Source of the DNA: Amphiscolops sp. MND2022
Taxonomy: Eukaryota
DNA length: 64,000 nucleotides
Assembly (NCBI GenBank): GCA_964187785.1
Contig: OZ076409.1
Location: 3,474,001-3,538,000, forward strand
Direction: 5' to 3'
Positions 9,827 through 64,000 of the stretch are shown here, piece after piece. Below the pieces are notes generated by a model. That model had not been told where the DNA came from, ran no database searches, and saw only the letters and a list, made by a program, of their open reading frames with translations. The position numbers and the translations under genes are program-made. Position 1 is the stretch's first letter; the number at the start of each line of letters is the position of its first letter.

Positions 9827-11390
9827 AAAGTTCAAAATGAAAAACAGACCCGCATACGCGCTAAAGGTCTTAGGTCTTTTTCATTCTGACTCGCACGAAT
9901 CCCAGTCATACAATTTATTGAAATTGCACACATGGGCTAATTTTGGCCTTGTTTCTCTCATTCCAGCCATACGATTTTAATGCCATTGCACATAAGGACT
10001 CTAATATGGTGTAGAAGGACTGTACAAAATTTCGTTCCAATCGAATGGACAGTTTTTGCGAAAATCAGAAAAGCTCGAAAAATGGCTAGCTTTTGATCAT
10101 TTTGGGGTTAGTTTTGGCTATGTTTCGCGCATCCAAGACCGATGCACGTCCTCACAGGATTGGCTAGTGGATGGGTTGATGACGACAAATGTCTTAACGT
10201 TTCATTGTTCTCAATTCCGGACGATCACTTATTAGCAGCACTGCAATTCCCCCACTTGTTTCTCAGAGTAGCTACATCGAAAATCATGGAGGTAATGGAA
10301 ACAATTTTGTGTTTTCCTGCGTGTCGGCCGTGACATTTGATGTTTTAGAGTTTGGGAAAGTAGTATCTTTTGGCTGTTGAAGATTACCTTCTCACCTGAG
10401 AGTGGTAATGAGATTGTACTTGGGTACTTCTTGTTAAATGATAACTGTTACAGCTTTCAAACCTTTTCAAAATGGGTGAAAAAAAACTTTGCATGATTTT
10501 GGTGCGCTAAACAACGTCAATTGAATAGCTTTGGGGTTAATTGAACGTCTTCTGTTGAGTTTTGATGAGACTTACATTTCCATTTTCAACTTTGACATTT
10601 CAACCCCTTATCCTGCTCACACTCAAAGCATCATGTCAACGTCAGGTCAAGATACCTACAAGATATCTACAATAGCGCATTCTTATCGTCTATTCGAGTA
10701 CTTTCCACATGCATCCACTTCTAATCCTAGTTGTGTGGAAGTTTCTTCGGGAGGCCTGCAGTTGGAGAAAAATTGGAGTTGAAAAAGTTTTTTTTTGAAT
10801 ATGAAGTCTCGTAATTTTCCAACGGGGAATGGTGAAACGCTGAAACAATGGCAAAAGGACCGAATGGTCTCTCATTGGTACGAATTTGGGCAGAATTTAC
10901 CCATTTTAACTGTATTTTTGAAAAACTGGGTGAAATTTGAAGTCCAAAAAGGCTGACTTTTCAAACATTTTTGGGCTAACTTTAACTATGTTTCTCGCAT
11001 CCGAGTCATACAAATTTGATGCCATTTCACATTTAGGACTCTAATATAGTGCAGCATGACTGTAGAAACTTTCGTTCGAATCGTATAGACAGTTTTTGAG
11101 AGATTCGATTGAGAAATTCGAATAAAGTCCAAAAATTATTGTTTTTTGGCCTAGTCTAGGTTAGTTTTTGCTATGTTTCTCACATCGAAGCCATACGATT
11201 TTGACGCCATTGCACATATAGGACTCTAAGATGGTGTAGAATGACTGTAGGAAATTTAGTTCGAATCGCATGGACAGTTTTAGAGATAATACTCATGAGA
11301 CCCCTAGTTGTTATGTAGTTCCACTTTCTGTCTCGGTAAAGGGGCCCTACCACTCCTTCGGGGTGTTTCTTCGGGCATTTCACCACCCAC
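9827..11390. mobile_element. Head-less, divergent array-type unit ('Y') with internal ~120-190 bp repeats; its tail forms the first junction
   Basis: The block ...GCCATT(G/T)CACAT..AGGACTCTAA.AT.GTG...GACTGTA.AAA.TT.GTTC.AATCG.AT.GACAGTTTT occurs at ~9950-10060, ~10985-11100 and ~11170-11285. The segment ends in GGGGCCCTACCA...CCACCTAG like the array tails. Confidence 0.55.
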
Positions 11391-12778
11391 CTAGCTGAGG
11401 ACTGCGGGTGTCGTTGGAATGGATTCGTCATACGTCGTCGAAGGGCATGCCTCGGCATGCCCACAGACGGTGGGCGTTGGTATGAATGTGTGGAGTTGAC
11501 TAAGACGGTCAGTTGTTAATTTAAAAAGTGTGATTTCAGAACCACACTAGTCTGTGTAACGCTTCGCTGCTCCAGCTATAACATGGGCTTAATATTGATT
11601 TCAACTAACGGCCATGTATATGTCACAAGAAAGTTTGAGGAAAAACAACGGGAAAAAAACGAGAGAAACAATGTACTTTGTTGTTCATTTTTCTTTATCG
11701 ATAGCCTCCAAAGTTGACGCAAGGTCAACTTCGAAGGCTATCGGGGGCGATAGAGCTCATCAATTTCCATAAATTCAGCAAAACAAGCCAGTACGCTAGT
11801 TTTGAGATTGAAAAGTTTCAATTAAGTGGTCTTGAAATAGTGAAAAAGTCATTTTTACATTAATTTTTGGACCATTTCCGGTCACATTGGGTAACTTCCG
11901 GTCATGGGGGTAACTTCCGGGATATGCTAAAGATCTTCCGGGACTTCGGTTGTCTAACATTTTATCTTTGTACAGATTTGAATGCCTCATTAGGCCTCAA
12001 GATGTTGGCATTTTGGTGCACAAGGTCAAAAAGCGGTCACAAAAAGGGGGGTTGACCCCACTTCCGGTCATGATGATACCTCCAAGTGGCCAACATATTG
12101 TCACTGGGTTGTGATCAGGTTGTATTTCAATTTCGATATCCTGCTAGGAGTCCCTAAAACGACTGCCTAATAATGAAAAAGGCTAAATTCTGCCAAAAAA
12201 CACAAAAAAGTGTCATTTCCGGTCCAAGGGGGGGTTGGGGGTGAAAACCACACATGTCGTCAGATTGACCCCAATACGTACAACAAAACATCAGGAGGGT
12301 GCGGGTACGCTAAATCCTCGGCTTCATGCTCAAAATTGGCTATTTTGCAAATTTGGGGGGTAAAACTGGAGGGGGGAACCCTTCTATCTCGGTGGGGGGT
12401 GATCCGAATGCAACCAAAATTTTCCACCAATTGTATTTTGAGATGCTGCAACTAAGTGTAAAAGTGAACGAGAACGCTAGCATGCCCTGGAAAAAAGTTA
12501 TGACGACACTTCGGATATAACGTCTAAAAAGGACGTTATTTCCGGTTTTTCGGCCATAAGTCAACAAAAAACAATTTGCGGGGAAAATGACAGTAAGAAA
12601 AAGTTCTTAGAATTTCGAGTTATGGCCGCATGCAAAAAATTATCCAAATCCTACGGTTAGATTCCAAAATCGCCTCTAAAACACCCATGTAGGATACTAG
12701 TATTATATGAAATTATTCTACGTCGGCGCAGGACCCTCCCCGCGCCTCCTTGTGCGTTCTGGGGACCGCCCCAACCAC
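11391..12778 (-). mobile_element. Array unit Z (1388 bp), unique body with repeated (AC/AT)TTCCGG motifs
   Basis: Bounded by junction cores. Has the conserved head core, the GATAGCC hairpin (11699-11743) and a tail stem-loop. Confidence 0.8.
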
Positions 12779-14771
12779 CTAGCAGCTACCGCACAAGTGC
12801 GGGCGCGCATAGATTTGGCGCGCGTCGTCGAAAGGCATGCCTCGGCATGCCTACGGACTATGGGCGTTGTTTCCCTATGTGGCGTTGTAGTGACAAGACG
12901 CCGTAGGTATGTAGGCGCGCGGATTGTACCATCACCGCGAATAACTATGGAAACAGTTGTTTAAGTATTTCAACCAACCAAGTACTAGTATGAATTTTGC
13001 GCTAATGGCAGTACATTGTGATAGTTATCGAAAACAAACGACTGAAAATGTAAAGTCGTGTGAACCGAATACACGGACGGTGGTCGAAAATTGTGGAAGT
13101 ATAAGCGACCTGGTTTAACCAACTAACCGTAAGACGATCGTACCAAAAGACGTTAGGAACAAACAAACAAATCAGAATTTAGTTTATTTTAGTGATAGCC
13201 TTCTCAAGTTGACGCAGAAGGTCAACTTAGAAGGCTATCACGAGATTCAGTTAACAGGTACTTGAAAAATAATCAAAATCTGTCCAGCCAGGATCGTAGA
13301 AAGACTACATGTCAGCATTGTGATTGACATTTTCAATCATCTTGAGTCCTTAAGGTGGCGTTAGAAGTATTAAAAGAGTTTTAAAGCTAAACAATTGCAA
13401 TTCAATCTTAGCAAAATAGCGTATTTTTTAGCGTCTACTTTTTTTACTGCTACAGATATAAAACATGGGAAGGGATTTTTTTCTTGAAACATTAAAGTAG
13501 AGAGTTTCTGATCAACCACATGATTCATTTGTATTCTAGGAATTAAATTAGATATCAGAAAGTATTTTTTAATGTTTGCTTTTCGAGATATTTAACGAAA
13601 AGTTTTTGAAAAACACTAGTATATGAGAAAAAAGTGTCTCATACCACGCCTTGAGCAACCCGATTCCTTCAAAATCTTCATATTAGTGCTGAAACTTACC
13701 CTACGCATTCTGTCTACATAGTGATTGACAAAAAAGAGTAAATATTTGTTCAAATCAACTTTCACTGTAATCCAAGGCTTCCGCGATGTTTACATCAATT
13801 GAACAGTATTGTTGAAAAAACGTCTTATCACGGCTCATATGTTTTTGGAGCGACTGATACCAGTCTCAATGGTGTTGTTGAGTATCATTGGCCCTACTGG
13901 TTACGTCAGAGTGCATATTTGTGCTTCAAAAGCTGAATTTCAAATTTCGACCTGACGAAAAATGGGTTTTTGAGACGAAATTTTTCTAAGTTAAGTTCCG
14001 AATGTCTGAAAAATGTCTGAAGAACGGGTGAAAAGATTTTTTTAAAACTTTATATTTCTATAAATGGTTATTACGTTGCCAGTAGGACCGTTCGTGAGCA
14101 ATAAGACTATATCCGACATGCCTCGATGAAAATATGATGTTGTAAATGACCGATTTGTAAAACAAGACTATGTTGTGAAATCCTTGTGAAACACCTATGA
14201 CCTCGAAAAAATTTTTAATTTCAGATTCGATGCTAACTGTTGAGTCTCTGGCAGCGAGTAGATACTAACAGAAACCATGGATAGCAAGGATTCTAAATTA
14301 AATAAAATAAAAAAATTTTTCTGAGGTTATTTTGACATATATGGTACTGATAGTAGTGAAAAAAATTTAAAAATGTCAAATTTTCAAAAAATTTAAAAAC
14401 TCTGCATCTTTTGTGTTTAGTGCATTGCCATGGTCACGAAATGATGGTTCCGACCTTGTTTCACAGTCAACGTCCAAAAATTAATGCAATCAGAGATATT
14501 TCACAAAAATTGCCAAAATCACTATTTTTGATGAAAAACCAAAGATAAATTTTTCAAAAAGTCATATTAGTAACATTTGGAGAGCAAAACGTCAGCAGGA
14601 AAAAGTTCTTAGATTGGGCGATAGGGTACACACAGCAATTTTCAGAGAATTTGTATGGCTCAATTTTCTAAACTCACATAATTTGGTACCTTTTCTATGG
14701 TATTTTGCCTCGGCCAGGGCCCCTACCCCGGCCTGCAATTTTTTTTTGACTACGGGAAACCTACCGCCCAC
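12779..14771 (-). mobile_element. Array unit A, copy 1 (1993 bp)
   Basis: Head CTAGCAGCTACCGCACAAGTGCGG; tail GGGAAACCTACCGCCCAC. Confidence 0.85.
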
Positions 14772-16757
14772 CTAGCCGGGGAGCGCGGGCGTAGGCCCGC
14801 GGTATTCGGCATACGTCGTCGAAGGGCATGCCTCGGCATGCCCACAGACTGTGCACGTCGCAACACTATGTGGCGTTGTACAGTATGACAGAGAGCGTGG
14901 CTGTAGGAAGTTGATGGGCCTAATAACAGTAGAAAAAGAAAAACAAAAACGGTAAAGACTCAATTTTGAATAATTTGGATAAGTTTGATGTTTATTTTTA
15001 GCACAAAATTAATAAATATGACTTCGAGTTCATAGGTATTTATCAAAGACTGAATGCAATCGACAGGTGACTTAATGGAAGGTACTAACGGTAGTATAGA
15101 ATCACGAAATTATATATAGACTGTCATTTCCAATGAACAAAAAAAAATTTTTGTTGAAAATTTTTTGATGTGATAGCCTTCCCAAGTTGACACAAGGCCA
15201 ACTTAAAAGGCTATCACGAGATTCAGTTAACAGGTACTTGAATAATTTGCGAAAATTGTTCAGTCAGGATCGTTGAAAGACCATATGTCACCATTGTGAA
15301 TAGCAGTTTTGATCATTTTGGGTGCGTAAGGTTGCGTTAGAAGTGTTTAAAGAGTTTTTAGACACAATCATTGCGATTCTATATTAGCAAAAAAGCTTAT
15401 TTTTCAGTTTCGATTTTTATTCCTGCTACAAATGTAACACATGCGAAGGGAAATATTTCGGAAAACGAAAGAGATGAAAGTTTCTGATCAACCACAGTGT
15501 TCATCTATAATGTAACCTTTGAATAAAGTAGTTGAAAGTATTTTGTCAAGTTTGTATTTCCAGATATTGGGCTAAAAATTTTGGAAAATACAGTAGTATA
15601 TGGGACAAAATTGTCTCATACCACCCCTTGAGCAACTCGATACCTTCAAAAACCTCATTATAGTGCTGAAACGCACCCTACGCATTCTGTGCACATAGTG
15701 ATTGACAAAACTGAGTAAAATTTTGATGAAATCACATTTCACAGTGATCGCTGGCTTGCGAGATCTTTACCTCAATTGAGACGTATTGCTCAAAGTAACG
15801 TCTTATCGCGACTCATATGTTATTGGAGCCACTGATACCAGTGTCAATCGTTGTTTTGAGTATCATGGGCCCCATGGGTTACGTCAGAGTTAATAATTTT
15901 GCTTAAAAAGTTGAATTTGATTATTCGACCTGACAAAAAATGGGTATTTTGGTCGAAATTTTTCTAAGTTAAGTTCCGAATGACTGAAAAATGACTGAAG
16001 ACCGGGTGAAAATATATTTTTTAAAACTTTCTAATACTATAAATGGTTCCTACATTGCCAGTGAGACCGTTCTAGAACATTAAGGCTATAGCCGACAAGC
16101 TTCGATGGAAATAATGTGTTCAAAATGACCAATTTGTAAATTGATACTAAGTTGAGAAATCCTTGTGAAACACCTAAGACCTCCAAAAAAATTTTATTTT
16201 CACATTGGATGCAAACTGTTGAGCGTTTTGCAGCGAGTAGGTACTGACGGAAACCATGGATACCGAGGTTTCTAAATTTGAGCAAATAAAAAATTTTTTC
16301 AGAGGTGTTTTTGACATATAGTGTACTGATACTAGTGAAAAAAAATCAAAAACGTCGAATTTTCAAAAAATGTAAAAACTTTACATCTTTTGTGTTCAGT
16401 GCAATGCCACAGCCACGAAATGAAGGTTCCAAGCTTGTTTCACAGTCAATGTCCAAAAATTAACACCTTTTGAGTTATCAGCGACTTTGTTAAAAATTTC
16501 CTCATTTTACCCTTCTATGTGAGTGGAAATTGGGCCATAACTTTTTATATATTATTTCAATCGCTTAACGTCAGCAGGAACTTCGATTCGTATGGGCATT
16601 TCAGGGCCGCATGCACTCCAAGTCCAAAAAATTGTGGTTAGATTTAAAAATCGCGATTCTGTGTCGCCGTTTCCTACTAGATATTCTTTGCTATTTGACG
16701 TCCGGCAGGACCCAACCCGCCGGCCGTAATTTTTGTTGGGGAATTACCCCCGCCCAC
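14772..16757 (-). mobile_element. Array unit B, copy 1 (1986 bp)
   Basis: Head CTAGCCGGGGAGCGCGGGCGTAGGCCCGCG; tail GGGGAATTACCCCCGCCCAC. Confidence 0.85.
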
Positions 16758-18765
16758 CTAGCTGCTACCGCACTCCAGAGTGCGGGTAAGGCTTATTTGG
16801 CATACGTCTTCGAAGGGCATGCCTCGGCATGCCCACAGACGGTGGGCGTTGATGTTGGTATGTGGCGTTGTTATACAAATCACAGGGTCATGACATAGGC
16901 TCAGATCATGGGTGACGGAAGACTGATAGCGGAAGAGAAAACAAATGTGATAGTATTCAAAGGTCAGAAGTTGTTATTTATTATTTAGACATAAAATTAT
17001 TTACCAAATAATAAACAAAAATGTCTTCGAGTTCATAGGTATTTTTTCAAACTCTGCATGCTATCGTCAGCTGACATGATGGAAGATACTAACGGTAGTA
17101 TACAATCACGAAAATAGGCATCGACAGCAAAATCCGATTAACAAATGGTAGTTTTGTTTATAGTTTTTGGTGGTGATAGCCTTCCCAAGTTGACACAAGG
17201 TCAACTTAAAAGGCTATCACAAGATTCAGTTTAAAGCTACATGTAAAATTTTCAAAAAATGTGCAGTCTGGATTGTAGAAAGAGTACATGTGAGGACTGT
17301 GAACGGTATTTCTAATAATATTGGGTCCATAAGGTTGCGTTAGAAGTATTTAAAGGGTATTTAGGCTCAATCATCGCGTTTCTATCTTAGCAAAATAGCG
17401 TATTTTTTATCTTCTGCTTTCTCTTCTGCCATAAATGTAACCCATGCGAAGGTATTTTTTCGGAAAACAAAAAAAATTGAGAGGTTCTGATCAACCACAG
17501 TGTTCATTCATATTCTAACCTTAGAATAAAGTATTTGAAAGCATTTTGCGAAGTTAGGTTTTTGAGATAATGGGCTAAAAATTTTGGAAAATATAGTACT
17601 ATATGGGAAAAAAATGTCTCATACACACCCTTGAGCAGGCCGAGTACATCAAAAACCTCATTATAGTGCTGAAACTCATCCTACGCACTCTGTGCACATA
17701 GTGATTGACAAAAATGAGTAAATTTTTGATGAAATCACATTTCACAGTGATCGCTGGCTTGCGAGATCTTTACCTCAATTGAGACGTATTGCTCAAAATA
17801 ACGTCTTATCGCGACTCATATGTTATTGGAGCCATTGATACCAGTGTCAATCGTTGTTTTGAGTATCATAGGCCCCATGGGTTACGTCAGAGTTAATAAT
17901 TTTGCTTGAAAATCTTAATTTCATTTTTCGACCTGACAAAAAATGGGTATTTTGGTCGAAATTTTTCTAAGTTAAGTTCCGAATGACTGAAAAATGACTG
18001 AAGACTAGGTGAAAATATTTTTTTAAAACTTTCTATTGCTATAAATGGTTCCTACGTTGCCAGTAGGACCGTTCTAGAACATTAAGGCTATAGCCGACAA
18101 GCCTCGATGAAAATATTGTGTTCAAAATGACCAACTTGTAAATTAAAACTAAGTTGTAAAATCCATGTGAAACGCTTATGACCCAAAAAAAATTTTTTAT
18201 TTTCACATTGGATGCAAACTGTTGGGTGTTTGGCTGCGAGTAGGTTCCGACAGTAACCATGGATACCAAGGTTTCCAATTTAAAGCAAATAAAAATTTTT
18301 TTATGATGTGTTTTTGACATATGGGGTACTGATAGTAGTGAAAAAAATTTCAAAAATCTCGAATTTTCGAAAAATGTAAAAACTTTACATCTTTTGTGTT
18401 CAGTGCAATGCCACAGCCACGAAATGAAGGTTCCAAGCTTGTTTCACAGTCAAAGTCCAAAAATTAACACATTTTGAGATATTAAGTGAAAAATTAGAAA
18501 TTTCCCAAAAATGTTGAAATTTTGAACAAAAAATTGGCCATAACTTTTTATAAAGTTTATAGAACGCTTAGCGTCAGCAGGAACTTCGTCTTGCAATAGG
18601 ATTTGAGGGCCGCATGCAAAAAATGAGCAAATTCTAATGGTTAGATTAAATTTTAGGTCTTTTTTTTGCAATTTCTGCTACATACCGCTAGCTTAAGGCG
18701 GATCGTCGGCCGCCAGGACCCTACCCGTCGGCCGAATACAAACGGGGTGAAATTTCCCCGCCCAC
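16758..18765 (-). mobile_element. Array unit C, copy 1 (2008 bp)
   Basis: Head CTAGCTGCTACCGCACTCCAGAGTGCGGGTAAG; tail CGGGGTGAAATTTCCCCGCCCAC. Confidence 0.85.
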
Positions 18766-20741
18766 CTAGCTGCTACCGCGGTAGTGACCTCGCAGGGGCG
18801 AATTTGCCATACGTCGTCGAAGGGCATGCCTCGGCATGCCCACAGACGGTGGGCGTCGGAACGCTATGTGGCGTTGTACTACTAACACTGCGAGGCCGCA
18901 CGCGATTGGTGTGGCTGATAACGGTAACGAATGTGAAAGTTAGAGTTTTTTAAGTTGGTAATAAAATAAAATTCTACTTTTGGAAAAAAAAACGATAAAA
19001 AATGTTTTTGATTTCATAGGTTTTTATCGAAAACTGAATGCAATTGTTATCTGACCTGCTGGATGGTACTAACGGTGGGATATAATCACGAAGTTAATCA
19101 TCAACAGCATTGTCTTATAAACGAGAAGTATTTTTGTTCATAGTTTTTTGTGGTGATAGCCTTGCCAAGTTGACACAAGGCCAACTTGAAAGTCTATCAC
19201 AAGAATCAGTTGACAGCTACATGTAAAATGTGCTAAAGTTGTGCATCCTGGAACGTAGAAAAAGCTAATGTGCGCATTGTAAACGGTTTTTTCAATCATT
19301 TTGAGTACGTAAGAGGGCGTTAGAAGTATTTAAAGATATATTGGTTACAATACTTGTAATTCTATCTTAGCAAAATAGCGTATTTTTTAGCTTCAGCTTT
19401 TTTTAATGCTACAAATGGGACACATGCGAAGGAATATTTATTGAAAAACATAAGAGTTGAGAGTTTCTGATCAACCACAATGTTCAATTATATTCTAAGA
19501 AGTGAATTAAGTATCGGAAAGTATTTTTTAGGTTTGCTTTGTGAGATATTGGGCGAAAAGTTATTCAAAAAAGCAGTAGTATATGAGACAAAAGTGTCTC
19601 ATACCACGCCTTGAGCAACCCGATTCCTTCAAAATCCTCATAGTAGTGCTGAAACTCACCGTACGCATTCTGTGTACATAGTGATTGACAAAAAAGAATA
19701 AATTTTTGTTCAAATCAACATTCACTGTGATTCAAGGGTTCCGAGATGTTTACTTCATATGAACAGTTTTGTTAAAAATAACGTCTTATCGCGGCTCATA
19801 TGTTATTGGAGCCACTGATACCAGTCTCAATGGTGTTGTTGAGTATCATTGGCCCCACTGGTTACGTCAGAGTGCATATTTGTGCTTCAAAAGCTGAATT
19901 TCAAATTTCGACCTGACGAAAAATGGGTTTTTGAGACGAAATTTTTCTAAGTTAAGTTCCGAATGACTGAAAAATGACTGAAGACCGGGTGAAAATATTT
20001 TTTTTAAACTTTCTATTACTATAAATGGTTCCTACGTTGCCAGTGGGACCGTTCTAGAACATTAAGGCTATAGCCGACAAGCCTCGATGAAAATCTTGTG
20101 TTCAAAATGACCTTTTTGTAAATTATTACTAAGTTGAGAAATCCTTGTGAAACGCTTATGACTCAGAAAAAATTTTTATTTTAACATTGGATGCAAACTG
20201 TTGGGTGTTTGGCTGCGAGTAGGTTCCGACAGAAACCATGGATACCAAGGTTTCCAAGTTAAAGCAAATAAAAATTTTTTTCTGAGGTGTTTTTGACATA
20301 TATGGTACTGATAGTAGTGAAAAAAATTTCAAAAATGTCAAATTTTCAAAAAATGTAAAAACTTTACATCTTTTGTGTTCAGTGCAATGTCACAGCCACG
20401 AAATGAAGGTTCCAAGCTTGTTTCACAGTCAATGTCCAAAAATTATTGCATTTTGAGATATTTGCCCTTTTATGAAAAATTTCATCATTTTTACATCTAA
20501 TGGGGACCAAAAATTGGCCATAACTTTTTTTATAATGTTTTTTGGGCTTAACGTCAGCAGGAACTTCGTCTCGTATGGGCAAATTAGGGCCGCATGCAAA
20601 AAATGAGAAGAATCGTACGGTTAGATTTTAAAATCGGCTGTTGAGGGTGTGCTTTTTCTTATAAGCGTTAGCTGTTTTGGGAGTTCGCGGCAGGACCCTA
20701 CCCGCCGCTCTAGTTTTTTTTGGGGTGAAATCCCCGCCCAC
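18766..20741 (-). mobile_element. Array unit D (1976 bp)
   Basis: Head CTAGCTGCTACCGCGGTAGTGACC; tail GCGGCAGGACCCTACCCGCCGCTCTAG...CCCCGCCCAC. Confidence 0.85.
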
Positions 20742-22018
20742 CTAGCCGCTACCGCAAAAGTGCGGGCGCGCTTGTGTTTGGCGCGCGTCGTCGAAAGGCA
20801 TGCCTCGGCATGCCTACGGACTATGGGCGTTGGTAAGGGTATGTGGCGTTGACGTTTGTTATGTAAATGATGGGTATTGTCAGTACCAAACGTACAGTAT
20901 ACGTCAAGTCAGAAGCAAAATCCAGCCAAACAACTTGTATTTATATGCACTAGCATAGAGGGCGTCGCATAAAACCAAATATGATCTGTAGTACCTGGAC
21001 TTTAGGAAGTACATTCTCATCTCCCCCAAGAGGGAGATGGAATGTACACAACTGTTTCGTTCTCTCAGATTGATTATGCAGCATCAAAAATTTTCAAATA
21101 GGGTCAAAAGAACTTGAAAGGCTTTGGAGCATTACACAGCTACTAATGACTAACGGAAATGACCAACAAAGCAAGTTTTTAATTTAAAAAATGATAAATT
21201 TTTTCCACTGACAAAATTCATGAAAAGTGTCGAAATTTGATTTAAAGAAAGTAAAAAGAATTTTAAAGGCTTTCTTTAGCTAATACAAGAAATCAGTTTG
21301 TTTCTGAGCATTTGTTTCTACCTGTAAGTCGCCTTAAACTCAACTTTAGGTTTTTAAATTCTGATATTTTCACTCGTTAGATTGAAAATGAGTGATTTTT
21401 CACTATTAAAAATGGCGTAAGTTGAACTGCGGAATAAAATTATTTCGTTGTCAGATTCAGGTTCCCCGTATGCGAAAACCTATATGGGAGAGCAAAAAAC
21501 ATCAAAAACGTGCAAAAAAAGGTTTTTTAAAAACATTTTAAAAATATTTAGTGGAACTTAGTAAAAATTCAATAAATTGTATCAAAAAACACTGAAATGA
21601 AAAAAAGTGTGAAATTTTGAAAAAACTAAACACTTTTGACAAAATCTGATTATGCAAGCCAATTGATGGCTTTTTGCAGACCTTATAACCTCTTATGACT
21701 TACTTCACCAAAATCAACCAGTTCTGAGGAAATTGACCAAAAAAAGCGAAAAAGTCAAATTTTAGCCTTAGACGGTCAAAAATTTTTCAATTTGACCAAC
21801 TTTTTGAATTTTCTGGGCAAAATGTCACTAGGACAAAGTCATTTGTTTACCAAGACGATGCTGTATGCCAATTTTCAGCCAAATCGTACGGGCCAATTTT
21901 TTAAACTCGCAGATTTTCACATTTTTCCTCCGTAAGAAATTGGTAACGGCCCGGGACCCTACCCCGGCCTAAAAAAAGTGGACTACGCTCATAAAGAAAA
22001 TCCCATGCTAACGACCAC
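20742..22018 (-). mobile_element. Array unit E, copy 1 (1277 bp); body unrelated to the 2-kb class
   Basis: Head CTAGCCGCTACCGCAAAAGTGCGG; tail CCCATGCTAACGACCAC. Confidence 0.85.
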
Positions 22019-24023
22019 CTAGCTGCTACCGCACTCCAGAGTGCGGGTAAGGCTCATTTGGCATACGTCGTCGAAGGGCATGCCTCGGCATGCCCACAGA
22101 CGGTGGGCGTTGATGTTGGTATGTGGCGTTGTTATACAAATCACAGGGTCATGACATAGGCTCAGATCATGGGTGACGGAAGACTGATAACGGAAGAGAA
22201 AACAAATGTGATAGTATTCAAAGGTTAGAAGTTGTTATTTATTATTTAGAAATAAAATTATTTACCAAATAATAAACAAAAATGTCTTCGAGTTCATAAG
22301 TATTTTTTCAAACTCTGCATGCTATCGTCAGCTGACATGATGGAAGATACTAACGGTAGTATACAATCACGAAAATAGGCATCGACAGCAAAATCCGATT
22401 AACAAATGGTAGTTTTGTTTATAGTTTTTGGTGGTGATAGCCTTCCCAAGTTGACACAAGGTCAACTTAAAAGGCTATCACAAGATACAGTTTAAAGCTA
22501 CATGTAAAATTTTAAAAAAATGTGCAGTCTGGATTGTAGAAAGAGTACATGTGAGGACTTTGAACGGTATTTCCAATCATATTGGGTCCATAAGGTTGCG
22601 TTAGAAGTATATAAAGGGTATTTAGGCTCAATCATCGCGTTTATATCTTAGCAAAATAGCGTATTTTTTATCTTCTGCTTTCTCTTCTGCCATAAATGTA
22701 ACCCATGCGAAGGTATTTTTTCGGAAAACAAAAAAATTGAGAGGTTCTGATCAACCACAGTGTTCATTCATATTCTAACCTTAGAATAAAGTATTTGAAA
22801 GCATTTTGCGAAGTTAGGTTTTTGAGATAATGGGCTAAAAATTTTGGAAAATATAGTACTATATGGGAAAAAATGTCTCATACACACCCTTGAGCAGGCC
22901 GATTACATCAAAAACCTCATTATAGTGCTGAAACTCATCCTACGCACTCTGTGCACATAGTGATTGACAAAAATGAGTAAAATTTTGATGAAATCACATT
23001 TCACAGTGATCGCTGGCTTGCGAGATCTTTACCTCAATTGAGACGTATTGCTCAAAATAACGTCTTATCGCGACTCATATGTTATTGGAGCCATTGATAC
23101 CAGTGTCAATCGTTGTTTTGAGTATCATAGGCCCCATGGGTTACGTCAGAGTTAATAATTTTGCTTGAAAATCTTAATTTCAATTTTCGACCTGACAAAA
23201 AATGGGTATTTTGGTCGAAATTTTTCTAAGTTAAGTTCCGAATGACTGAAAAATGACTGAAGACTAGGTGAAAATATTTTTTTAAAACTTTCTATTGCTA
23301 TAAATGGTTCCTACGTTACCAGTAGGACCGTTCTAGAACATTAAGGCTATAGCCGACAAGCCTCGATGAAAATATTGTGTTCAAAATGACCAACTTGTAA
23401 ATTAATACTAAGTTGAGAAATCCTTGTGAAACGCTTATGACCCAGAAAAAATTTTTATTTTCACATTGGATGCAAACTGTTGGGTGTTTGGCTGCGAGTA
23501 GGTTCCGACAGAAACCATGGATACCAAGGTTTCCAAGTTAAAGCAAATAAAAATTTTTTTCTGAGGTGTTTTTGACATATATGGTACTGATAGTAGTGAA
23601 AAAAATTTCAAAAATCTCGAATTTTCGAAAAATGTAAAAACTTTACATCTTTTGTGTTCAGTGCAATGCCACAGCCACGAAATGAAGGTTCCAAGCTTGT
23701 TTCACAGTCAAAGTCCAAAAATTAACACATTTTGAGATATTAAGTGAAAAATTAGAAATTTCCCAAAAATGTTGAAATTTTGAACAAAAAATTGGCCATA
23801 ACTTTTTATAAAATTTATAGAACGCTTAGCTTCAGCAGGAACTTCGTCTTGCAATAGGATTTGAGGGCCGCATGCAAATTTTGAGCAAATTCTAATGGTT
23901 AGATTAAATTTTAGGTCTTTTTTTTGCAATTTCTGCTACATACCGCTAGCTTAAGGCGGATCGTCGGCCGCCAGGACCCTACCCGTCGGCCGAATACAAA
24001 CGGGGTGAAATTTCCCCGCCCAC
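22019..24023 (-). mobile_element. Array unit C, copy 2 (2005 bp)
   Basis: Same head, body and tail as 16758-18765. Confidence 0.85.
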
Positions 24024-27000
24024 CTAGCCGCTACCGCAATCGGGTGTAGATATAAAAAGTAGTTGGCATACGTCGTCGAAGGGCATGCCTCGGCATGCCC
24101 ACAGACGGTGCTCGTTGGTAACAGTAAGTGGCATTATACAAATGACGACAGAGTAGAGACATGGTAAGGTGTTTAGTATGATGGATGATAAGGGTAGAAG
24201 ACACCAAAACCAAAACTATATCAATTTCAAAAAAAATAATATATTTTTTCGGTTGTGATTTGAAAACGCTAATCACATAATTCTGTAGTTAAACTCTTCG
24301 GGATTGCAAAATTTGGATGACAGTTATTTGGCAAACGTACATTCCCACAGAAGGGAAGGGATGTACTTAACGAAAGTACCTAACGGCATTGAAAATTAAG
24401 AACAACAAAGACTTGTGAGTCAATTCTATCATAATATCTCAAATACCTCCGTCATGTACACTAAGCTAACGTCACCAAAAGAACACACGCATGCATGCTC
24501 GAAACAAACATTCTGTTCTTTCTGAAAGCTTTCCACGGTGTTATTAATATAGAAGTTAGTTTTCCACTATTGTCGTCACAGATCGATTTATCCTCAAAAG
24601 ATTATAAGTCAACGTCATCTTGAGATAAAGGCCAGTTCTTTACATTATTTATCCCATCCATTAAAGTGGATTCAGCATTCATTCACTTGCTATCTTGATT
24701 GTGTGGAGTTTCATGAATTTGGAAGGCCGGAAAGATTTGAAAAAACTTGTGAACTTCCTCAGTCAAACCTTTGTTCACTGGGTAATACAATCGAACTTAA
24801 CTGCGGCAAATGTGTCTTTTGGTTTTGTTCTGCAGAAATAGAAGCTGAAGCAAAACTTCATGAAGGTACTAGAAGCATTTTTATTCTTTCATCGTTTCAG
24901 CAGTTACATACAATGTTACAAAAGAATCAAACTTCGAAGTTTTTGGCTTTTGAAAAGTACATTCTCATCTCCCCCGATGGGGAGATAGAATGTACTCAAG
25001 TGTTTCTTGTTATTTAATGGTTAAGATTAAAGTTGATTGGACGTATTCCATTGAGATTTCGATGAAACTTAGGGTCCATTTATGTATTATCACATGTCAA
25101 CCTCTTATGAAGCTCACTCTCAAAAAAAATTAAGTATAAATGTTATCGCTAATTTAAAAATATTAGACCGGGTATATATGTGGAATGATTCACTTTTTAT
25201 ATGGAACAGATTATGGTGTTCTTACCAAAAAATCGGTGGTTTTAAATATAGCTCAAAAGATTGCCAATACCTGATTTGGTATTCTCTGAAGGTCATATGG
25301 ATTTGATAGAACGTCAAGAGGCTGTGGTTTGGATGATTTTTTGACAATTTTTATATCTAAAGTTTCTTTTTCGTGTCATTTTTGCCCATTTTTGGAGGGT
25401 TTAATATTTTTTCATATCCACCAAAAATCATTCTAAACAAAATTCTGATAATCAACAATAGAAGTAGAGTTGATCGGTATGTGATAGTTTTCTGGGCTAT
25501 TCTCATACGGCAAATGGCGTGCATTTGAAATTTTTCAGGAAACGGTATGTTTTTCTTTCCCAAAAATGTCGGCTTTTTCACATATTGCTCAAAAACGGGT
25601 AAAACCTGTTTTACCATACTCTGTGGACCACGTGGAGTTGATAGAACCCCAAGAAGCTGTGGTTTGTATGATTTTTTGACTTTTTAAAATTTTAAGGTCA
25701 ATTTTTTCGTGTCATTTTGGCCCATATTTGGAGGGTTCAAAATTTTTTCATATCCATTAAAAATCTTTCTAAGCAACTTTCTGATAATTTACAATAGAAG
25801 TAAAGTTGATCGGTATGTGATAGCTTTCTGTGCTATTCTCATAGAGCAAATGGCGTGCATTTGAAATTTTTTAGGAAATGGTATGTATTTCTTTCCCAAA
25901 AATGTCGGCTTTTTCATATATTGCTCAAAAACGGGTAAAACCTGATTTAGCATACTCTGTGGATCACGTGGAGTTGATAGAATCCCAAGAAGCCGTGGTT
26001 TTGATGATTTTTTTACATTTTAAAATTTTTAGGTCATATTTATCGTGTAATTTTTTCCCTGTTTTGGAGGATTTAAATTTTTTAAATATCCATCAAAACC
26101 TATTCTAAACTAAATTCTGTTCATCTACAATGGAAGTGGAGTTGATCGGTATGTGGTAGTTTTCTGTGCTACTCTCATACAGCAAATGGCGTGCATTCAA
26201 TATTTTTTAAGAAATGGTATGTTTTTCTTTCCCAAAAATGTCGGCTTTTTCACATATTGCTCAAAAACGGGTAAAACCTATTTTAGCGTACTCTGTGGAC
26301 CACGTGGAGTTGATAGAACCCCAAGAAGCTGTGGTTTTGATGATTTTTTGACATTTTAAAAATTTAAGGTCAATTTTTTCGTGTAATTTTGGCACATTTT
26401 TGGAGAGTTCAAAATTTTTTAATATCCATCAAAATTCAATCAAAACAAAATTCTAATAATCTACAAGGGGAGTAGAGTTGATCGGTATATGATAGTTTTC
26501 TGTGCTACTCTTATACGTCAAATGGGGTGCATTTGAAATTTTTTAGGAAATGGTATGATTTTTAGGAATTTCGTCAAAAAAGTTTGCTTTTTAAATTTAT
26601 TTAAATTGAAAAGATACGGGGTTATTACACATGTCATATAACCAACTTTTTGAGCGGAATCCAATGGTGCCATCGAAAAAATTATTTACCAGCTAACATT
26701 TTTAGTACTGCCAAAATAACCGAAAAAGGAAACAACTTTTTCATGATTTGGCGATTTGTTCATCCGGACATGGTCCAAACACCAATACTAGCATTCTTCC
26801 ATCATATTTATTGTTCTAACACTTCAACCCATCATAAAGAAACATTTCAATTATATTTTGAATATTAACTTCATGTGACAAAGGGTTGAAATATTTTAAA
26901 AAGTTAGTAGAAAAGAGGAAGTTTTTGTTTTATAGAACGCCCTGAGCAACCCATATTATGGTAGAACCTCATTTCACGGCTGAAACTAACACAACCGGTT

Positions 27001-28794
27001 CTGTGTAAATAGTGATTGACGAAAAAGAAATATTTTTTGATGAAATCACTTCTCACGGTGATTCAAGGCTTTCAACATGTTTACTTCGGATGAGAGTTTT
27101 TGTGTTAAAAACATACTATCGCATCTCATATGTTATTAGATCATATGGTGACAGTCTTTTTGTTGTTTTTGAGTAATTTGGGCCCAACTTTTTGCTTCAG
27201 ACAGAAAAGTATTGCTTCCTAAACTAAATTTAAAATTGCGACCTGACAAAAATGGGTTTCTCAGAAAAAAAATTATTACCTAAGTGTTAATAAATAGACC
27301 TCGGTCTTATTTATAGCGATTGTCAGCATTGTTAATGGTATTTTCGAACCTCCTGGGTAAAAGAAGTGGCATCAGAAGTTGTTGAAACGTTTTTGCTCTG
27401 CATCATTGCATGTCTGTCCGTCCAAAATTGGGATTTTTGGAGCTACTGGTATTTTTCCTGTCACATATGTAACGCATGCGAAGGGTTTTTTTCTAAAAAC
27501 CAAATAGTTAATAGTTTCTGATCAACCAAACTGTTCATCTATATTCTAAGCTTTCACTAAAGTAACTGAAAGTACTTTGTCGAGTTAGTTTTACCAGATA
27601 ATGGGCTAAAATTTTTGGAAAATACAGTAGTATATGGGAAAAAAATGTCTCATACCACCCCTTGAGCAACCCGAATCCTTCAAAAACCTCATTATAGTGC
27701 TGAAACTCACCCTACGCACTCTGTGCACATAGTAAATGGCGAAAATGGGTAAATTTTTGATGAAATCACATTTCACTGTGATCCCAGGCTTGCGAGATGT
27801 TTACTTCGATTTAGAGGTTTTGCTCTGTATAACGTCTTATCGCGGATCATATGTTATCGAAGCTACTGATACCAGTCCCAATCGTGTTTTTGCGTATCAT
27901 GGGCCCCACTGGTTACGTCAGAGTTAATAATTTTGCATAAAAAGGTGAATTTCAATTTTCGACCAGAGGAAAAATGGGTTTTTGAGACGAAATTTTTCTA
28001 AGATAAGTTCCGAATGTCTGAAAAATGACTGAAGAACGGGTGAAAAAAATTTTTTATAACTTTGTATTTCTATAAATGGTTAATACGTTGCCAGTAGGAC
28101 CATTCGTGAGCAATAAGACTCTATCCGACACGCCTCGATGGAAATATGATGTTGAAAATGACCAATTTGTAAATTGAAACTAAGTTGTGAAATCCTTGTG
28201 AAACACCTATGACCTCGAAAAAAAATTCATATTCACTTTGGATGCAAACTGTTGAGTGTTTGGCTGCGAGTAGGTTCCGACAGAAACCATGGATACCAAG
28301 GTTTCTAAATTTAAGCAAATAAAAATTTTTTTCTGAGGTGTTTTTGTCACATTGGTTACATATAGTAGTGAACACCGAGTCAATTTGGTCAAATTTTTGA
28401 AAAATGTAAAAAATTTAGATCTTTTGGGTCTAGTGCATTGCTAGGGCAAAGAATCGAAGGTTTAAACCAGTGATAGGTTGATTGTCACAAGTTTTTCAAT
28501 TTTTTGCATTCGAGCTGTTTGTAAAAAGTTTCTCAAAAATACCTCAAAAATCGCACCAAAAAGTGGCTATATCTCGTTACACAATGAAACCATTGCTTAA
28601 CGTCAGCAGGAACTTCGTCTTGTATGCCCAAATTAGGGCCGCATGCAAAAAATGGTACAAATCCTATGGTTCAAAAAAAAGTTCGGTGCCGGAAAAATTT
28701 TCTCTAGTATATAGCGCCGTAAGCTTGGTAAATAGAAGCTCCCGACAGGACCCTACCCGCGGTCGCAAAAAAAGTGGAGATATATCCCCCCCAC
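24024..28794 (-). mobile_element. Array unit F, subtype 1 (4771 bp)
   Basis: Head CTAGCCGCTACCGCAATCGGGTGTAG; internal 336-bp repeats; tail GGAGATATATCCCCCCCAC. Confidence 0.85.
25210..26570. repeat. About 4 x 336-bp tandem repeat inside F1
   Basis: Anchor GTRRAGTTGATCGGTAT at 25464, 25800, 26136 and 26472. Confidence 0.85.
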
Positions 28795-30072
28795 CTAGCC
28801 GCTACCGCAAAAGTGCGGGCGCGCTTGTGTTTGGCGCGCGTCGTCGAAAGGCATGCCTCGGCATGCCTACGGACTATGGGCGTTGGTAAGGGTATGTGGC
28901 GTTGACGTTTGTTATGTATATGATGGGTATTGTCAGTACCAAACGTACAGTATACGTCAAGTCAGAAGCAAAATCCAGCCAAACAACTTGTATTTATATG
29001 CACTAGCATAGAGGGCGTCGCATAAAACCAAATATGATCTATAGTACCTGGACTTTAGGAAGTACATTCTCATCTCCCCCAAGAGGGAGATGGAATGTAC
29101 ACAACTGTTTCATTCTCTCGGATTGATTATGCAGTATCAAAAATTTTCAAATAGGGTCAAAAGAACTTGAAAGGCTTCGGAGCTATACACAGCTACTAAT
29201 GACTAACGGAAATGACCAACAAAGCAAGTTTTTAATTTAAAAAATGATAAAGTTTTTCCACTGACAAATTTCATGAAAAGTGTCGAATATTGATTTAAAG
29301 AAAGTAAAAAGAATTTTAAAGGCTTTCTTTAGCTAATACAAGAAATCAGTTTGTTTCTGAGCATTTGTTTCTACCTGTAAGTCGCCTTAAACTCAACTTT
29401 AGGTTTTTAAATTCTGATATTTTCACTCGTTAGATTGAAAATGAGTGATTTTTCACTATTAAAAATGGCGTAAGTTGAACTGCGGAATAAAGTTACTTCG
29501 TTGCCAGATTCAGGTTCCCCGTATGCGAAAACCTATATGGGAGAGCAAAAAACATCAAAAACGTGCAAAAAAAGGTGTTTTAAAAACATTTTAAAAATAT
29601 TTAGTGGAACTTAGAAAAAATTCAATAAATTATATCAAAAAACATTGAAATGAAAAAAAAGTGTGAAATTTTGAAAAAACTAAACACTTTTGACAAAATC
29701 TGATTATGCAAGCCAATTGATGGCTATTTGCAGACCTTATAACCTCTTATGACTCACTTCACCAAAATCAACCAATTCTGAGGAAATTGACCAAAAAAAG
29801 CGAAAAAGTCAAATTTTTGCCTTAGACGGTCAAAAAATTTTCAATTTGACCAACTTTTTGAATTTTCTGGGCAAAATGTCACTAAGACAAAGTCATTTGT
29901 TTACCAAGACGATGCTGTATGCCAATTTTCAGCCAAATCGTACGGGCCAATTTTTTAAACTCGCAGATTTTCACATTTTTCCTCCGTAAGAAATTGGTAA
30001 CGGCCCGGGACCCTACCCCGGCCTAAAAAAAGTGGACTACGCTCATAAAGAAAATCCCATGCTAACGACCAC
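28795..30072 (-). mobile_element. Array unit E, copy 2 (1278 bp)
   Basis: Near-identical by eye to 20742-22018. Confidence 0.85.
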
Positions 30073-32071
30073 CTAGCCGCTACCGCACTCCAGAGTGCGG
30101 GATAAGCTCATTTGGCATACGTCGTCGAAGGGCATGCCTCGGCATGCCCACAGACTATGGGCGTCGGAACGCTATGTGACGCGACGTTGTAATAAGGACA
30201 TACATTGCGAGGACGTTGGGGATGGCTGGAGATGATAACGGTCGAAAAGATTGAAGTTATACTTCCTAGTGGTTTTAATTAGGTTTTTTTAATTATTTGT
30301 TTTTATTTTTTGTAAACAAAAAAAAGAGAATTGACTTCAAGTTCATACATTCTTATCAAACACTGAAAGCAATCGTTAGCTGACCTGATGGAAGGATCTA
30401 ACGATAGGATCGAATTACGAAAATAGGCATCGACAGCAAAGTCAAATTAACAAATGGTAATTTTGTTTATAGTTTTTTGTGGTGATAGCCTTCCCAAGTT
30501 GACACAAGGCCAACTTAAAAGGCTATCACAAGATTCAGTTTAAAGCTACATGTAAAACTTTCAAAAAAAGTGCAGTCTGGATTGTAGAAAGAGTTTATGT
30601 GAGGACTGTGAACGGTATTTCCAATCATATTGGATCCATAAGGTTGCGTTAGAAGTATTTAAAGGGTATTTAGGCACAATCATCGCGTTTCTATCTTAGC
30701 AAAATAGCGTATTTTTTATCTTCTGCTTTCTTTTCTGCCATAAATGTAACCCATGCGAAGGTATTATTTCAGTAAAACAAAAAAATGAGAGGTTCTGATC
30801 AACCACAGTGTTCATTCATATTCTAACCTTAGAATAAAGTAATTGAAAGCATTTTGCGAAGTTAGGTTTTTGAGATAATGGGCTAAAAATTTTGGAAAAT
30901 ACAGTACTATATGGGAAAAAAATGTCTCATACACCCCCTTGAGCAGGCCGATTATTTCAAAAACCTCATTATAGTGCTGAAACTCATCCTATGCACTCTG
31001 TGTACATAGTAATTGACAAAAATATGTAAACTTTTGGTGATCTCACATTTCACTGTGATCCCAGGCTTCCGAGATGTTTACTCCGATTTAGAGGTTTTGC
31101 TCTAAATAACGTCTTATCCCGACTCATATGTTATTGGAGCCACTGGTATCAGTCCCAACGGTGTTTTTGAGTATCATTAGCCCCACTGGTTACGTCAGAG
31201 TAAAAAATTTTGCTTCAAGTGCTGAAATTCAAATTTCGACTTCACCAAAAATGGGTATTCGAGACGAAAATTTTCTAAGTTAAGTTCCGAATGACTGAAA
31301 AATGACTGAAGACCGGGTGAAAATTTTTTTTAAAACTTTCTATTACTATAAATGGTTCCTACGTTGCCAGTGGGACCGTTCTATAACATTAAGACTATAG
31401 CCGACAAGCCTCGATGAAAATATTGTGTTCAAAATGACCAATTTGTAAATTAAAACCAAGTTGAGAAATCCTTGTGAAACACCTAAGACCTCGAAAAAAA
31501 TTTTAAATTCACACTGGATGCAAACTGTTGGGTGTTTGGCAGCGAGTAGGTTCCGACAGAAACCATGGATACCAAGGTTTCCAATTTGAAGCAAATAAAA
31601 ATTTTTTTCTGATGTGTTTTTGACATATGGGGTACTGATAGTAGTGAAAAAAATTTCAAAAATCTCGAATTTTCGAAAAATGTAAAAACTTTACATCTTT
31701 TGTGTTCAGTGCAATGCCACAGCCACGAAATGAAGGTTCCAAGCTTGTTTCACAGTCAAAGTCCAAAAATTAACACATTTTGAGATATTAAGTGAAAAAT
31801 TAGAAATTTCCCAAAAATGTTGAAATTTTGAACAAAAAATTGGCCATAACTTTTTATAAAGTTTATAGAACGCTTAGCGTCAGCAGGAACTTCGTCTTGC
31901 AATAGGATTTGAGGGCCGCATGCAAATTTTGAGCAAATTCTAATGGTTAGATTAAATTTTAGGTCTTTTTTTTGCAATTTCTGCTACATACCGCTAGCTT
32001 AAGGCGGATCGTCGGCCGCCAGGACCCTACCCGTCGGCCGAATACAAACGGGGTGAAATTTCCCCGCCCAC
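30073..32071 (-). mobile_element. Array unit G, copy 1 (1999 bp); own head with C-type tail
   Basis: Head CTAGCCGCTACCGCACTCCAGAGTGCGGGATAAG...GGAACGCTATGTGACGCG; tail as in C. Confidence 0.85.
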
Positions 32072-46807: not shown

Positions 46808-48083
46808 CTAGCCGCTACCGCAAAAGTGCGGGGGCGCTTGTGTTTGGCGCGCGTCGTCGAAAGGCATGCCTCGGCATGCCTACGGACTATGGGCGTTGGT
46901 AAGGGTATGTGGCGTTGACGCTTGTTATGTATATGATGGGTATTGTCAGTACCAAACGTACAGCATACGTCAAGTCAGAAGTAAAATTCAGACAAACAAT
47001 TTGTATTCATGTGCACTAGTATAGACGGCGTCGCATAAAAACAAATATGGTCTGTAGTACCTGGACTTTGGCAAGTACATTCTCATCTCCCCCAGGAGGG
47101 AGATGGAATGTACACAACTGTTTCGTTCTCTCGGATAGATTATGCAGTATCAAAAATTTTCAAATTGGGTCAAAATACTTGAAACGTGTTGGTGAATTAC
47201 ACAGATAATAATGACAAACGCAAATGACTAACAAAGCAAGTTTTTTATTTAAAAATTATAAATTTTTTTCACTGCCAAATTTCTTAAAAATAGTTGAATT
47301 TTGATTTAAAGAAAGTAAAAAGAATTTTAAAGGCTTTCTTTGGCTAATACAAGAAATCTATTTGTTTCTGAGCATTTGTTTCCACCTGTAAGTCTCCTTA
47401 AACTCAACTTTATGTTTTTAAATTCTGATATTTTCACTCGTTAGGTTGAAAATAAGTGATTTTTCAACAATTAAAAATGGCGAAAGTTGAACTGCAGAAT
47501 AAAGTTATTTCGTTGCCAGATTCAGTTTCCCCGTATGCGAAAACCTGTATGGGAGAGCGAAAAACATCAAAAACGTGCAAAAAAAGTGTTTTAAAACATT
47601 TTTAAAAAAATTTAGTGAAACTTAGAAAAAATTCAATAAAGTGTATCAAAAAACATTGAAATAAAAAAAAAGTGTGAATTTTTGAAAAAACTAAACACTT
47701 TTGACAAAATCTGATTTTGCAAGCCGATTGATGGCTACTTGCAGACCTTATAACCTCTTATGACTCACTGCACCAAAATCAACCAATTCTGAGAAAATTG
47801 GCCAAAAAAAGCGAAAAAGTCAAATTTTTGCCTTGGACGGACAAAAAATTTTCAATTTGACCAACTTTTTGAATTTTCTGGGCAAAATGACACTAGGACA
47901 AAGTCATTTGTTTCCCAAGACGATGCTGTATGCCAATTTTCAGCCAAATCGTACGGGCCAATTTTTTAAACTCGCAGATTTTCACATTTTTCCTCCGTAA
48001 GAAATTGGTAACGGCCCGGGACCCTACCCCGGCCTAAAAAAAGTGGACTACGCTCATAAAGAAAATCCCATGCTAACGACCAC
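46808..48083 (-). mobile_element. Array unit E, copy 3 (1276 bp), more diverged
   Basis: E head and tail; many substitutions at 46980-47300 relative to copies 1 and 2. Confidence 0.85.
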
Positions 48084-63800: not shown

Positions 63801-64000
63801 CGTGTTCTGTGTATAAAGTGATTGACGAAAAAGAAATATTTTTTGATGAAATTGCTTTTCACGGTGATTCAAGGCTTTCAACATGTTTACTTCGGATGAG
63901 AGTTTTTGTGTTAAAAACCTACTGTCGCATCTCATATGTTATTAGGGCATATGGTAACAGTCTTTTTGTTGTTTTTGAGTAATTTGGGCCCAGCGGTTTG
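60841..64000 (-). mobile_element. Array unit F, subtype 3, cut by the window end
   Basis: F head; body colinear with F1 and F2 but diverged from both. Confidence 0.8.
62025..63370. repeat. About 4 x 336-bp tandem repeat inside F3
   Basis: Anchor at ~62269, 62605, 62941 and 63278. Confidence 0.85.

Follow-up and report, generated by a model that had tools for sequence, protein, structure and literature searches.

What does a small stem-loop do shortly before each joint of a long array of non-coding units? The question was raised by the window, which here means the whole stretch of 64,000 nucleotides that was analysed. The preliminary description had likened the stem-loop to the rolling-circle origins of CRESS-DNA viruses and read it as the initiation or protein-recognition site of the unit. 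The DNA of the window is A+T-rich and eukaryote-like, and its host is taken to be an invertebrate animal, speculatively an acoel worm. From 11391 to the window end it is composed of non-coding units in a single orientation with 23 copies of CCACCTAGC as separators. The 22 complete units fall into seven tail families, with unit sizes of 1.28 kb (f), 1.39 kb (a), 2.0 kb (b, c, d/h and e/j) and 4.77 kb (g/i). The 2-kb families have about 80% identity to one another across 1.3-1.9 kb, and families a and f have only their ends in common with the other families. Some array blocks are near-identical (99.2-100%) and are recent duplicates, and some subfamilies are mosaics. No truncated units were found in the array. 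The stem-loop, termed hairpin A, is carried at all junctions over a same-orientation span of 52 kb. The main features, with the junction after unit e as the example, are as follows.

about 11387/11391..64000, minus strand: mixed head-to-tail array of 22 complete units and one cut unit, extending past the window edge
9830..11390 (left limit approximate), minus strand: degenerate leftmost unit P, with the tail block three times, a decayed hairpin A (loop at 11341) and no head found
18766..20741, minus strand: unit e (1,976 bp), non-coding, owner of the hairpin at 20687-20708
20511..20637, unstranded: conserved tail block (AACGTCAGCAGGAA ...), 100-230 nt before the core
20687..20708, minus strand: hairpin A, an 8-bp stem (GCGGCGGG/CCTGCCGC) with one G.T pair and a 6-nt loop, TAGGGT (20695-20700)
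20722..20735, unstranded: hairpin B, a weak GGGG...CCCC stem between hairpin A and the core
20738..20746, unstranded: junction core CCACCTAGC, with CTAG at 20742-20745, identical at 23/23 junctions
20752..20765, minus strand: hairpin C of the next unit, a Helitron-type 3' terminal hairpin with a family-specific stem, 10-12 nt before the CTAG end
20797..20814, unstranded: invariant 18-bp palindrome GGCATGCC-TC-GGCATGCC, 23/23 and metagenome contig L001
20823..20851, plus strand: two direct repeats GTGG(G)CGTTG, about 20 nt apart, candidate binding repeats
12730, 14717, 16707, 18715, 20692, 21953, 23973, 28747, 30007, 32021, 36792, 38774, 40785, 42783, 44773, 46756, 48018, 50032, 52022, 54026, 56024 and 60794: loop starts in the array units

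Because the leftmost unit P is degenerate, the array does not begin at a clean target site on its left. Between 9935 and 11290 two of its three tail blocks are at 185-nt spacing, an arrangement resembling a nascent minisatellite. The 4.77-kb g units have part of the shared body in duplicate, together with four to five copies of a subrepeat about 336 bp long (25200-26600; also 33, 57 and 62-63 kb). GC skew on the plus strand is steadily positive (about +0.03 to +0.12) over 12000-64000 and negative at 3-10 kb. A public contig-only run (X1, 0.09 of words in common) was compared to 18550-22200 and yielded 27 low-depth contigs; no RNA run was listed among those with words in common. One of the 27 contigs spans 18550-18707 with 3 differences, and no new flank was seen at any junction among the matches listed.

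Every stem-loop string quoted in the preliminary description was present (20687-20708 and 46751; 16702-16723; 12725-12746; 18707-18734 and 7 more). The observation was sound as to the hairpin and the pairing of its stem and had to be given up as to a constant 12-nt open loop. The loop is exact in 13/23 copies, five other variants occur, and 7/12 positions are invariant in ten aligned sequences. Nor is it open, as its outer bases pair (GG with CC, and position 1 with position 12) to leave a 6-nt loop. The GG-CC pairing inside the former loop is invariant. The pair formed by positions 1 and 12 is G-C in two families; in the remaining families it is G.T on the minus strand and A.C on the plus strand. 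Elsewhere the minus-strand loop reads TTGGGT, GAGGGT, TAGGGG or TAGGGC, with GGG invariant. The loop TAGGGT is a piece of the TTAGGG telomere repeat; no telomeric doublets or repeats were found in the window. The sequence AGGACCCNNCCC, with at most one mismatch, occurred 19 times, always on the plus strand, compared to 0.76 expected and a largest count of 3 in 100 shuffles. A tail-profile search returned exactly 23 matches, one ahead of each of the 23 cores. The distance from loop end to core was 31-50 nt at 23/23, confirming a hairpin shortly before each junction. Family e alone has a further CTAG directly behind hairpin A on the plus strand (20710-20713), with a T run after it; this feature is not conserved in the remaining families.

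A single copy of hairpin A is unremarkable alone, with z of -1.1 on the plus strand and -1.7 on the minus strand. The claim that the stem differs by family while pairing is kept was upheld by permutation of the right arms among seven families and L001, with the degenerate unit P and variant c2 excluded. Only 4/40,320 permutations folded as well as the native arrangement on the minus strand and 32/40,320 on the plus strand. Stems pairing no better than shuffled controls had been named in advance as grounds for rejecting the stem-loop; this comparison was run and 0/2,000 arm shuffles folded as well. In a structural alignment of the tails (10 rows) 77% of cells pair compared to 58.5 ± 3.4% in shuffles (0/500), and controls with a slid register gave 38-52%. 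Cells changed on both sides numbered 17 in this alignment against 8.1 in shuffles. Pairs with a two-sided change numbered 5 against 4.7, which is no excess over shuffles (315/500). The stem of the g family is weak, with 2/5 arm pairs in register, and the stem has been lost in unit P.

Hairpin A was more stable on the minus strand in 9/9 distinct sequences, which are related copies, by 1.7-4.1 kcal/mol; background 40-mers were split 250:259. This preference is partly compositional, since shuffles of the intact families differ by 0.5-1.3 kcal/mol in the same direction. The minus strand was also favoured by the long internal hairpins (7/9 and 6/6). The palindrome showed the opposite bias, with 5/7 favouring the plus strand. 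Hairpin A is genuine: non-coding mobile elements carry it as a conserved end signal, and it looks functional.

Read on the minus strand, each unit starts with GTGG and continues with hairpin B, hairpin A at 35-54 nt, the conserved block and the body. These are followed by a long internal hairpin, the two direct repeats, the palindrome, hairpin C, 6-8 nt and CTAG. CTAG is present on the minus strand at 23/23 junctions. The bases after CTAG at all 23 are GTGG on the minus strand and C[C/T/A]G on the plus strand, with no 5' TC. Hairpin C is clear in b, c, d/h, f and g (5/8 distinct heads), although the stem in g has just 3 bp. In e and j the hairpin is imperfect; it is weak in L001 and absent in a. 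A weaker mirror image is seen on the plus strand, where a 4-5-bp stem lies 10-11 nt before CTAG in a, c, d, e and L001. The conserved tail block is in all tails, including those of unit P and L001. The foot of the palindrome shows a compensatory G-C/A-T change, and an inverted partial copy of the direct repeat overlaps the core (CGCCCACC). The core is G+C-rich, and no A or T run longer than 4 nt was found within 15 nt of the 23 cores. No poly(A) was found at the 23 junctions. Terminal inverted repeats were absent from the 22 units, the longest inverted match between the ends of a unit being 5-8 nt. Each unit has one long internal hairpin. A GATAGCCTT...AAGGCTATC type is found in 16 units, 310-430 nt from the core (19152-19204 and 15 more). 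A GTACATTC...GAATGTAC type is found in 7 units and L001 (21009-21047 and 6 more), at about 270 nt in f and L001 and about 930 nt in g. These hairpins, which are taken here to resemble Helentron-type end hairpins, suggest older elements captured between newer ends.

The point of exchange was located by clustering four segments around each junction into classes and counting their combinations against random expectation. Across the loop, 8 classes gave 8 combinations (random 18.4), a perfect linkage of upstream and downstream sequence. Both stem arms and both hairpin flanks always came from one family. Across the core there were 15 tail-to-head class combinations at 23 junctions (random 17.4, P 0.057), which is near-free exchange. 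Across the palindrome there were 10 (random 18.9), indicating little or no exchange. Where junctions had the same tail and different heads, divergence began directly after the ninth core base in 24/34 pairs and never earlier. Where they had the same head and different tails, 9/15 pairs had no base in common left of the core. Heads and tails are linked within units and neighbours vary. As linkage breaks at the core and not across the loop, the joint, and with it the cut, is placed in the core. The joint lies within the nine core bases, outside both the loop and the longest identical stretch. Because crossovers do not use the invariant 18-bp palindrome, exchange is site-specific and not homologous. 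Insertion of units at junctions is deduced from these adjacency patterns.

An exact search of metagenome contigs with the palindrome gave one match, the 1,172-bp contig L001. It holds a whole junction with the tail block, GGCGC-AGGACCCTACCC-GCGCC, the core GCACCTCGC, the palindrome and the first direct repeat. As the search pattern did not include the loop, finding it in L001 is a real test. L001 has 69% identity to the a/b junction over 310 nt, and beyond that only one internal hairpin is in common with the window. L001 thus repeats the whole architecture of the ends around a body that is unrelated. Its loop and palindrome are the same as in the window, and the core (878-886) differs at two bases, giving CGAG where the window has CTAG. 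The core difference is either a lineage-specific joint or a single mutated copy. The contig derives from either a different species or a different family of a related species.

The interpretation first attached to the stem-loop separated into two parts. A protein-recognition site of the unit is supported by inference, given the conserved cap, the co-varying stem, the fixed distance to the boundary and retention of the signal in the otherwise unrelated L001. A CRESS-like origin with initiation in the loop did not survive. CRESS origins need a nonamer in the loop, according to the available portion of PMC7468197, which gives the nonamer patterns. Four patterns (NANTANTAN, NAKWRTTAC, TAWWDHWAN and TRAKATTRC) matched 0/24 loops on either strand, agreeing with the earlier remark that the loop is not the CRESS nonamer. 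The units do resemble CRESS-DNA virus origins in their conserved loop bases, a stem of variable sequence and direct repeats nearby. They differ from them in the missing nonamer, the 6-nt loop, a joint 31-50 nt outside the hairpin with exchange never crossing the loop, arms and flanks that stay together, and the lack of a Rep or capsid gene on the units among the window frames. No comparable site was found in viral contigs, phages or plasmids: the palindrome patterns gave 0 matches in viral contigs and 0 in prokaryote genomes, and the junction region had no match among phage and plasmid records. The loop with two closing pairs gave three matches in viral contigs (G+C-rich, 14-104 kb), and neither a core nor a palindrome followed within 150 nt; the loop with the core gave one match in viral contigs, which had no stem. 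All of these were taken as chance. The CRESS analogy is wrong in its key point, and a literal origin of this type, nicked inside the loop, is given almost no credence.

The favoured reading, thought to have slightly better than an even chance of being right in full with its mechanism, is that hairpin A is a subterminal recognition signal in the 5' (left) end of non-autonomous Helitron-like rolling-circle elements read on the minus strand. A canonical Helitron 3' end has a 16-20-nt hairpin 10-15 nt before CTRR, as stated in an excerpt of PMC13286980. In b, c, d/h, f and g a family-specific hairpin 10-12 nt before the CTAG end matches this layout, as far as the excerpt goes. The part of PMC5876387 consulted describes tandem Helitron arrays as established and reports for Helraiser that circles have precise RTS-to-LTS junctions, that the left end is needed and that the right-end hairpin is a terminator. 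Separate binding and nicking sites are usual in rolling-circle origins, according to the text seen of PMC5714925. An HUH transposase encoded elsewhere would recognise the single minus strand by binding its invariant cap, GG-NNGGGN-CC, which sits on a G+C stem with no fixed sequence. The same transposase would cut in the core about 40 nt from hairpin A, so that binding and nicking sites are separate. The displaced strand would be released at hairpin C and CTAG and circularised, and closure of the circle would rebuild the core. The rebuilt core may be the enzyme's own cut-and-join sequence, and it is proposed that for this reason circles insert at existing junctions in one orientation, regenerate the site and so let different families stack. 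Later unequal exchange would have duplicated some blocks. The likeliest cut would be CTAG^GTGG or CTAGG^TGG, the latter being the only minus-strand position giving a 5' T in both the window and L001. Against the Helitron reading, the 5' end is GTGG and not TC, and CGAG in L001 breaks the CTRR rule in one contig.

Since no transposase, solitary copy, empty site or circle was found in the 64-kb window, the polarity, cut position and enzyme class given here are inferred, as are the strand and the targeting; the anatomy and the exchange point were observed directly. No autonomous RepHel partner with these ends was found in the window either. Stop-to-stop unit frames of at least 62 aa had 0/58 Pfam matches, recombinases included. 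These frames were drawn from 8.9-16.8, 18.8-22.0 and 24.0-28.8 kb, with unit d (80% like c and e) not separately translated. Outside the array, the frame at 3-1604/1607 on the plus strand was considered as an enzyme partner. It has no Pfam or Atlas match and no longer relatives, and was not linked. It encodes 534 aa, is cut by the window start and has 31 distant relatives. When 12 of these were scanned, 5 had weak UvrD_C_2 matches (3 of them also Viral_helicase1) and 0/12 had a Rep domain. In the relatives, which reach about 850 aa, a weak C-terminal motif of superfamily-1 helicases precedes a long domain without a Pfam match. This is an unannotated multi-copy protein family. The minus-strand frames 8060-8827 and 3738-4208 are related to each other and belong to a highly repeated family. 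Frame 8060-8827 has 543 relatives, and PF03564 was found in 2/120 of those listed on ENA contigs, which are mostly long. Both frames are probably LTR-retrotransposon remnants.

The units were compared to described element groups. They are like the non-autonomous elements of Helitron1/HLE1 (Helraiser, Xuan-Feng) and their tandem arrays in the hairpin 10-12 nt before a terminal CTAG in those families where it is clear, the absence of terminal inverted repeats, the non-coding bodies with internal repeats and the precise head-to-tail joints. HLE1 elements insert between A and T without target-site duplication. The units differ from them in the 5' GTGG in place of TC, CGAG in L001, the conserved structured signal 35-54 nt inside the 5' end and, at 55-110 nt from the 3' end, an invariant palindrome and direct repeats that HLE1 elements lack. 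HLE1 arrays also repeat one element, whereas here unrelated families are mixed at one 9-bp core. With Helitron2/Helentron/HINE elements (HLE2), including Fusarium FoHeli, the units have in common hairpins at both ends (A and B at one, the palindrome and C at the other) and a short inverted motif tying the 5' end to a site just before the 3' palindrome; termini other than TC and CTRR are known among HLE2 elements. HLE2 subterminal inverted repeats are 11-18 nt in the accessible section of PMC11417382, whereas the inverted match of the units is 5-8 nt without co-variation within units. HLE2 termini are T-rich and insertion is at TT; the units have no T runs or TT at their joints and end in a hairpin and CTAG about 55 nt past the palindrome. 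The HINE layout is outlined in an excerpt of PMC4067079, and the passages seen of PMC5148889 describe Fusarium Helitrons with non-canonical ends and self-insertion. The units resemble Helitron ends yet fail HLE1 on the 5' TC and HLE2 on inverted repeats and T-rich ends.

A third Helitron clade in Paramecium, as far as described in the part of PMC13085455 available, has strict orientation and a repeat target. Like these elements, the units keep strictly to one orientation, have a non-canonical tetranucleotide at the end and stem-loops that co-vary at the termini, and form clusters of non-autonomous copies with satellites; the target is apparently sequence-specific in both. The Paramecium elements in that text are flanked by telomeric repeats, which the window does not have, and the apparent target of the units is their own junction. 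Replitrons, described in plants, algae and protists in the excerpt of PMC10288648, have short terminal direct repeats. They are like the units in what may be a short motif common to both ends, in orientation-specific insertion and in a proposed HUH mechanism. They are unlike them in having a Y1 Rep transposase without helicase, as no Rep was found in the window units. Each unit is bounded by the same 9-bp core, and in an array end repeats of the Replitron type are indistinguishable from one sequence at the junction. Arrays derived from Helitrons in Hydractinia, Xenopus and Meloidogyne are satellites or repeats of one element in the portions seen of PMC11934779, PMC12001565 and PMC13404089. No description of mixed families joined at one shared core was found in the literature searched, which was mostly open-access. 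Subscription papers, Repbase and the plant centromeric arrays reportedly treated by Xiong et al. 2016 could hold similar cases.

The plus strand also has a weak hairpin 10-11 nt before CTAG, which stands against a settled polarity. The same elements and enzyme class may operate with opposite polarity, the plus strand being moved, hairpins A and B forming the 3' termination signal, and the 5' end starting with T(A/C)GC, hairpin C following closely, much like Helitron2-type ends, which have a hairpin at each terminus. This appears unlikely. Hairpin B does end 10-11 nt before the plus-strand CTAG end in a, c, d, e and L001, the plus-strand hairpin of L001 is stronger than its minus-strand one (-4.4 vs -2.8), and a cut at CACC^T would leave a 5' T in the window and L001 and 5'-TC in L001. 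Non-canonical Helitron ends of this sort are on record in the passages of PMC5148889. However, hairpin B is missing from f and weak in b and g, the G.T pairs of hairpin A on the minus strand become A.C mismatches on the plus strand, and in b, c, d and f the terminal hairpins of the minus strand have the greater length and strength. A more distant departure would be an integron-like cassette array, in which the asymmetric 9-bp core is the site where a tyrosine or serine recombinase recombines non-coding circles, and in which the hairpins serve as folded single-strand recognition elements. A crossover spacer needs identity only between partners. The L001 core, differing at two bases beside an unchanged loop and palindrome, would suit such a spacer, as would exchange restricted to a short asymmetric core in one orientation and near-free order. 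Most families lack inverted arms symmetrically flanking the core, however, no recombinase frame is present in the units, and the hairpin with CTAG fits a Helitron end without extra assumptions, making a cassette array distinctly improbable.

The asymmetry between the strands in G.T pairs, which would be G.U in a minus-strand transcript, fits RNA equally with single-stranded DNA. A folded minus-strand transcript, spread by reverse transcriptase or produced from arrayed RNA genes, would account for it, yet the units have base-precise joints, no poly(A) and no truncated copies. Over the 64 kb there was no Rfam match at gathering score, and over 18.5-22.3 kb the 4 matches had E of 1.2-2.9, none below 1 and all far below gathering. 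An RNA-level function is accordingly thought very improbable. Hammerhead-like patterns gave 8 plus-strand matches, none at a junction and all without a proper stem II, and HDV-like folds were rejected on inspection by eye. Guide pairing of the IS200/IS605 type and loop-to-downstream pseudoknots showed no co-variation by eye. A passive satellite, with G+C-rich ends homogenised by gene conversion and a hairpin without function, would explain the blocks of 99.2-100% identity, the mosaic subfamilies and the modest stability of a single hairpin. Against this stand the two-sided stem changes, and a loop, spacing and palindrome kept between non-homologous bodies and in L001; unequal exchange within bodies also cannot make new tail-to-head joints at one 9-bp site. 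The passive satellite was largely refuted by the permutation tests and retains very little probability.

A broader proposal goes beyond the Helitron-like reading and is put forward tentatively, being considered rather unlikely. The units may be undescribed animal single-strand transposons or recombinase cassettes with a structured two-part origin, in which a hairpin with a G-rich hexaloop would serve for binding and the 9-bp core for cutting. Circles would insert only into the core, each insertion would regenerate the site, and unrelated families would form an integron-like, self-extending array. The enzyme would then be a sequence- and orientation-specific integrase native to animal cells.

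More interesting than the hairpin is the larger object, an array in which different families of Helitron-like elements, all with unusual left ends, are joined to one another. To our knowledge, recognition of the Helitron left end is much less clear than termination at the right end. The seven families and the separate contig are a natural mutagenesis of an end, with seven invariant cap bases, a sequence-free stem, fixed spacing and a 9-bp joint, so that, with the enzyme in hand, recognition of the end could be tested directly. Search tools relying on TC...CTRR or inverted repeats would miss such elements. Known Helitrons have very short targets (AT or TT). If insertion truly targets the elements' own junction, this would explain how mixed arrays of kilobase units arise without harming genes, and it would point to a site-specific single-strand integrase.
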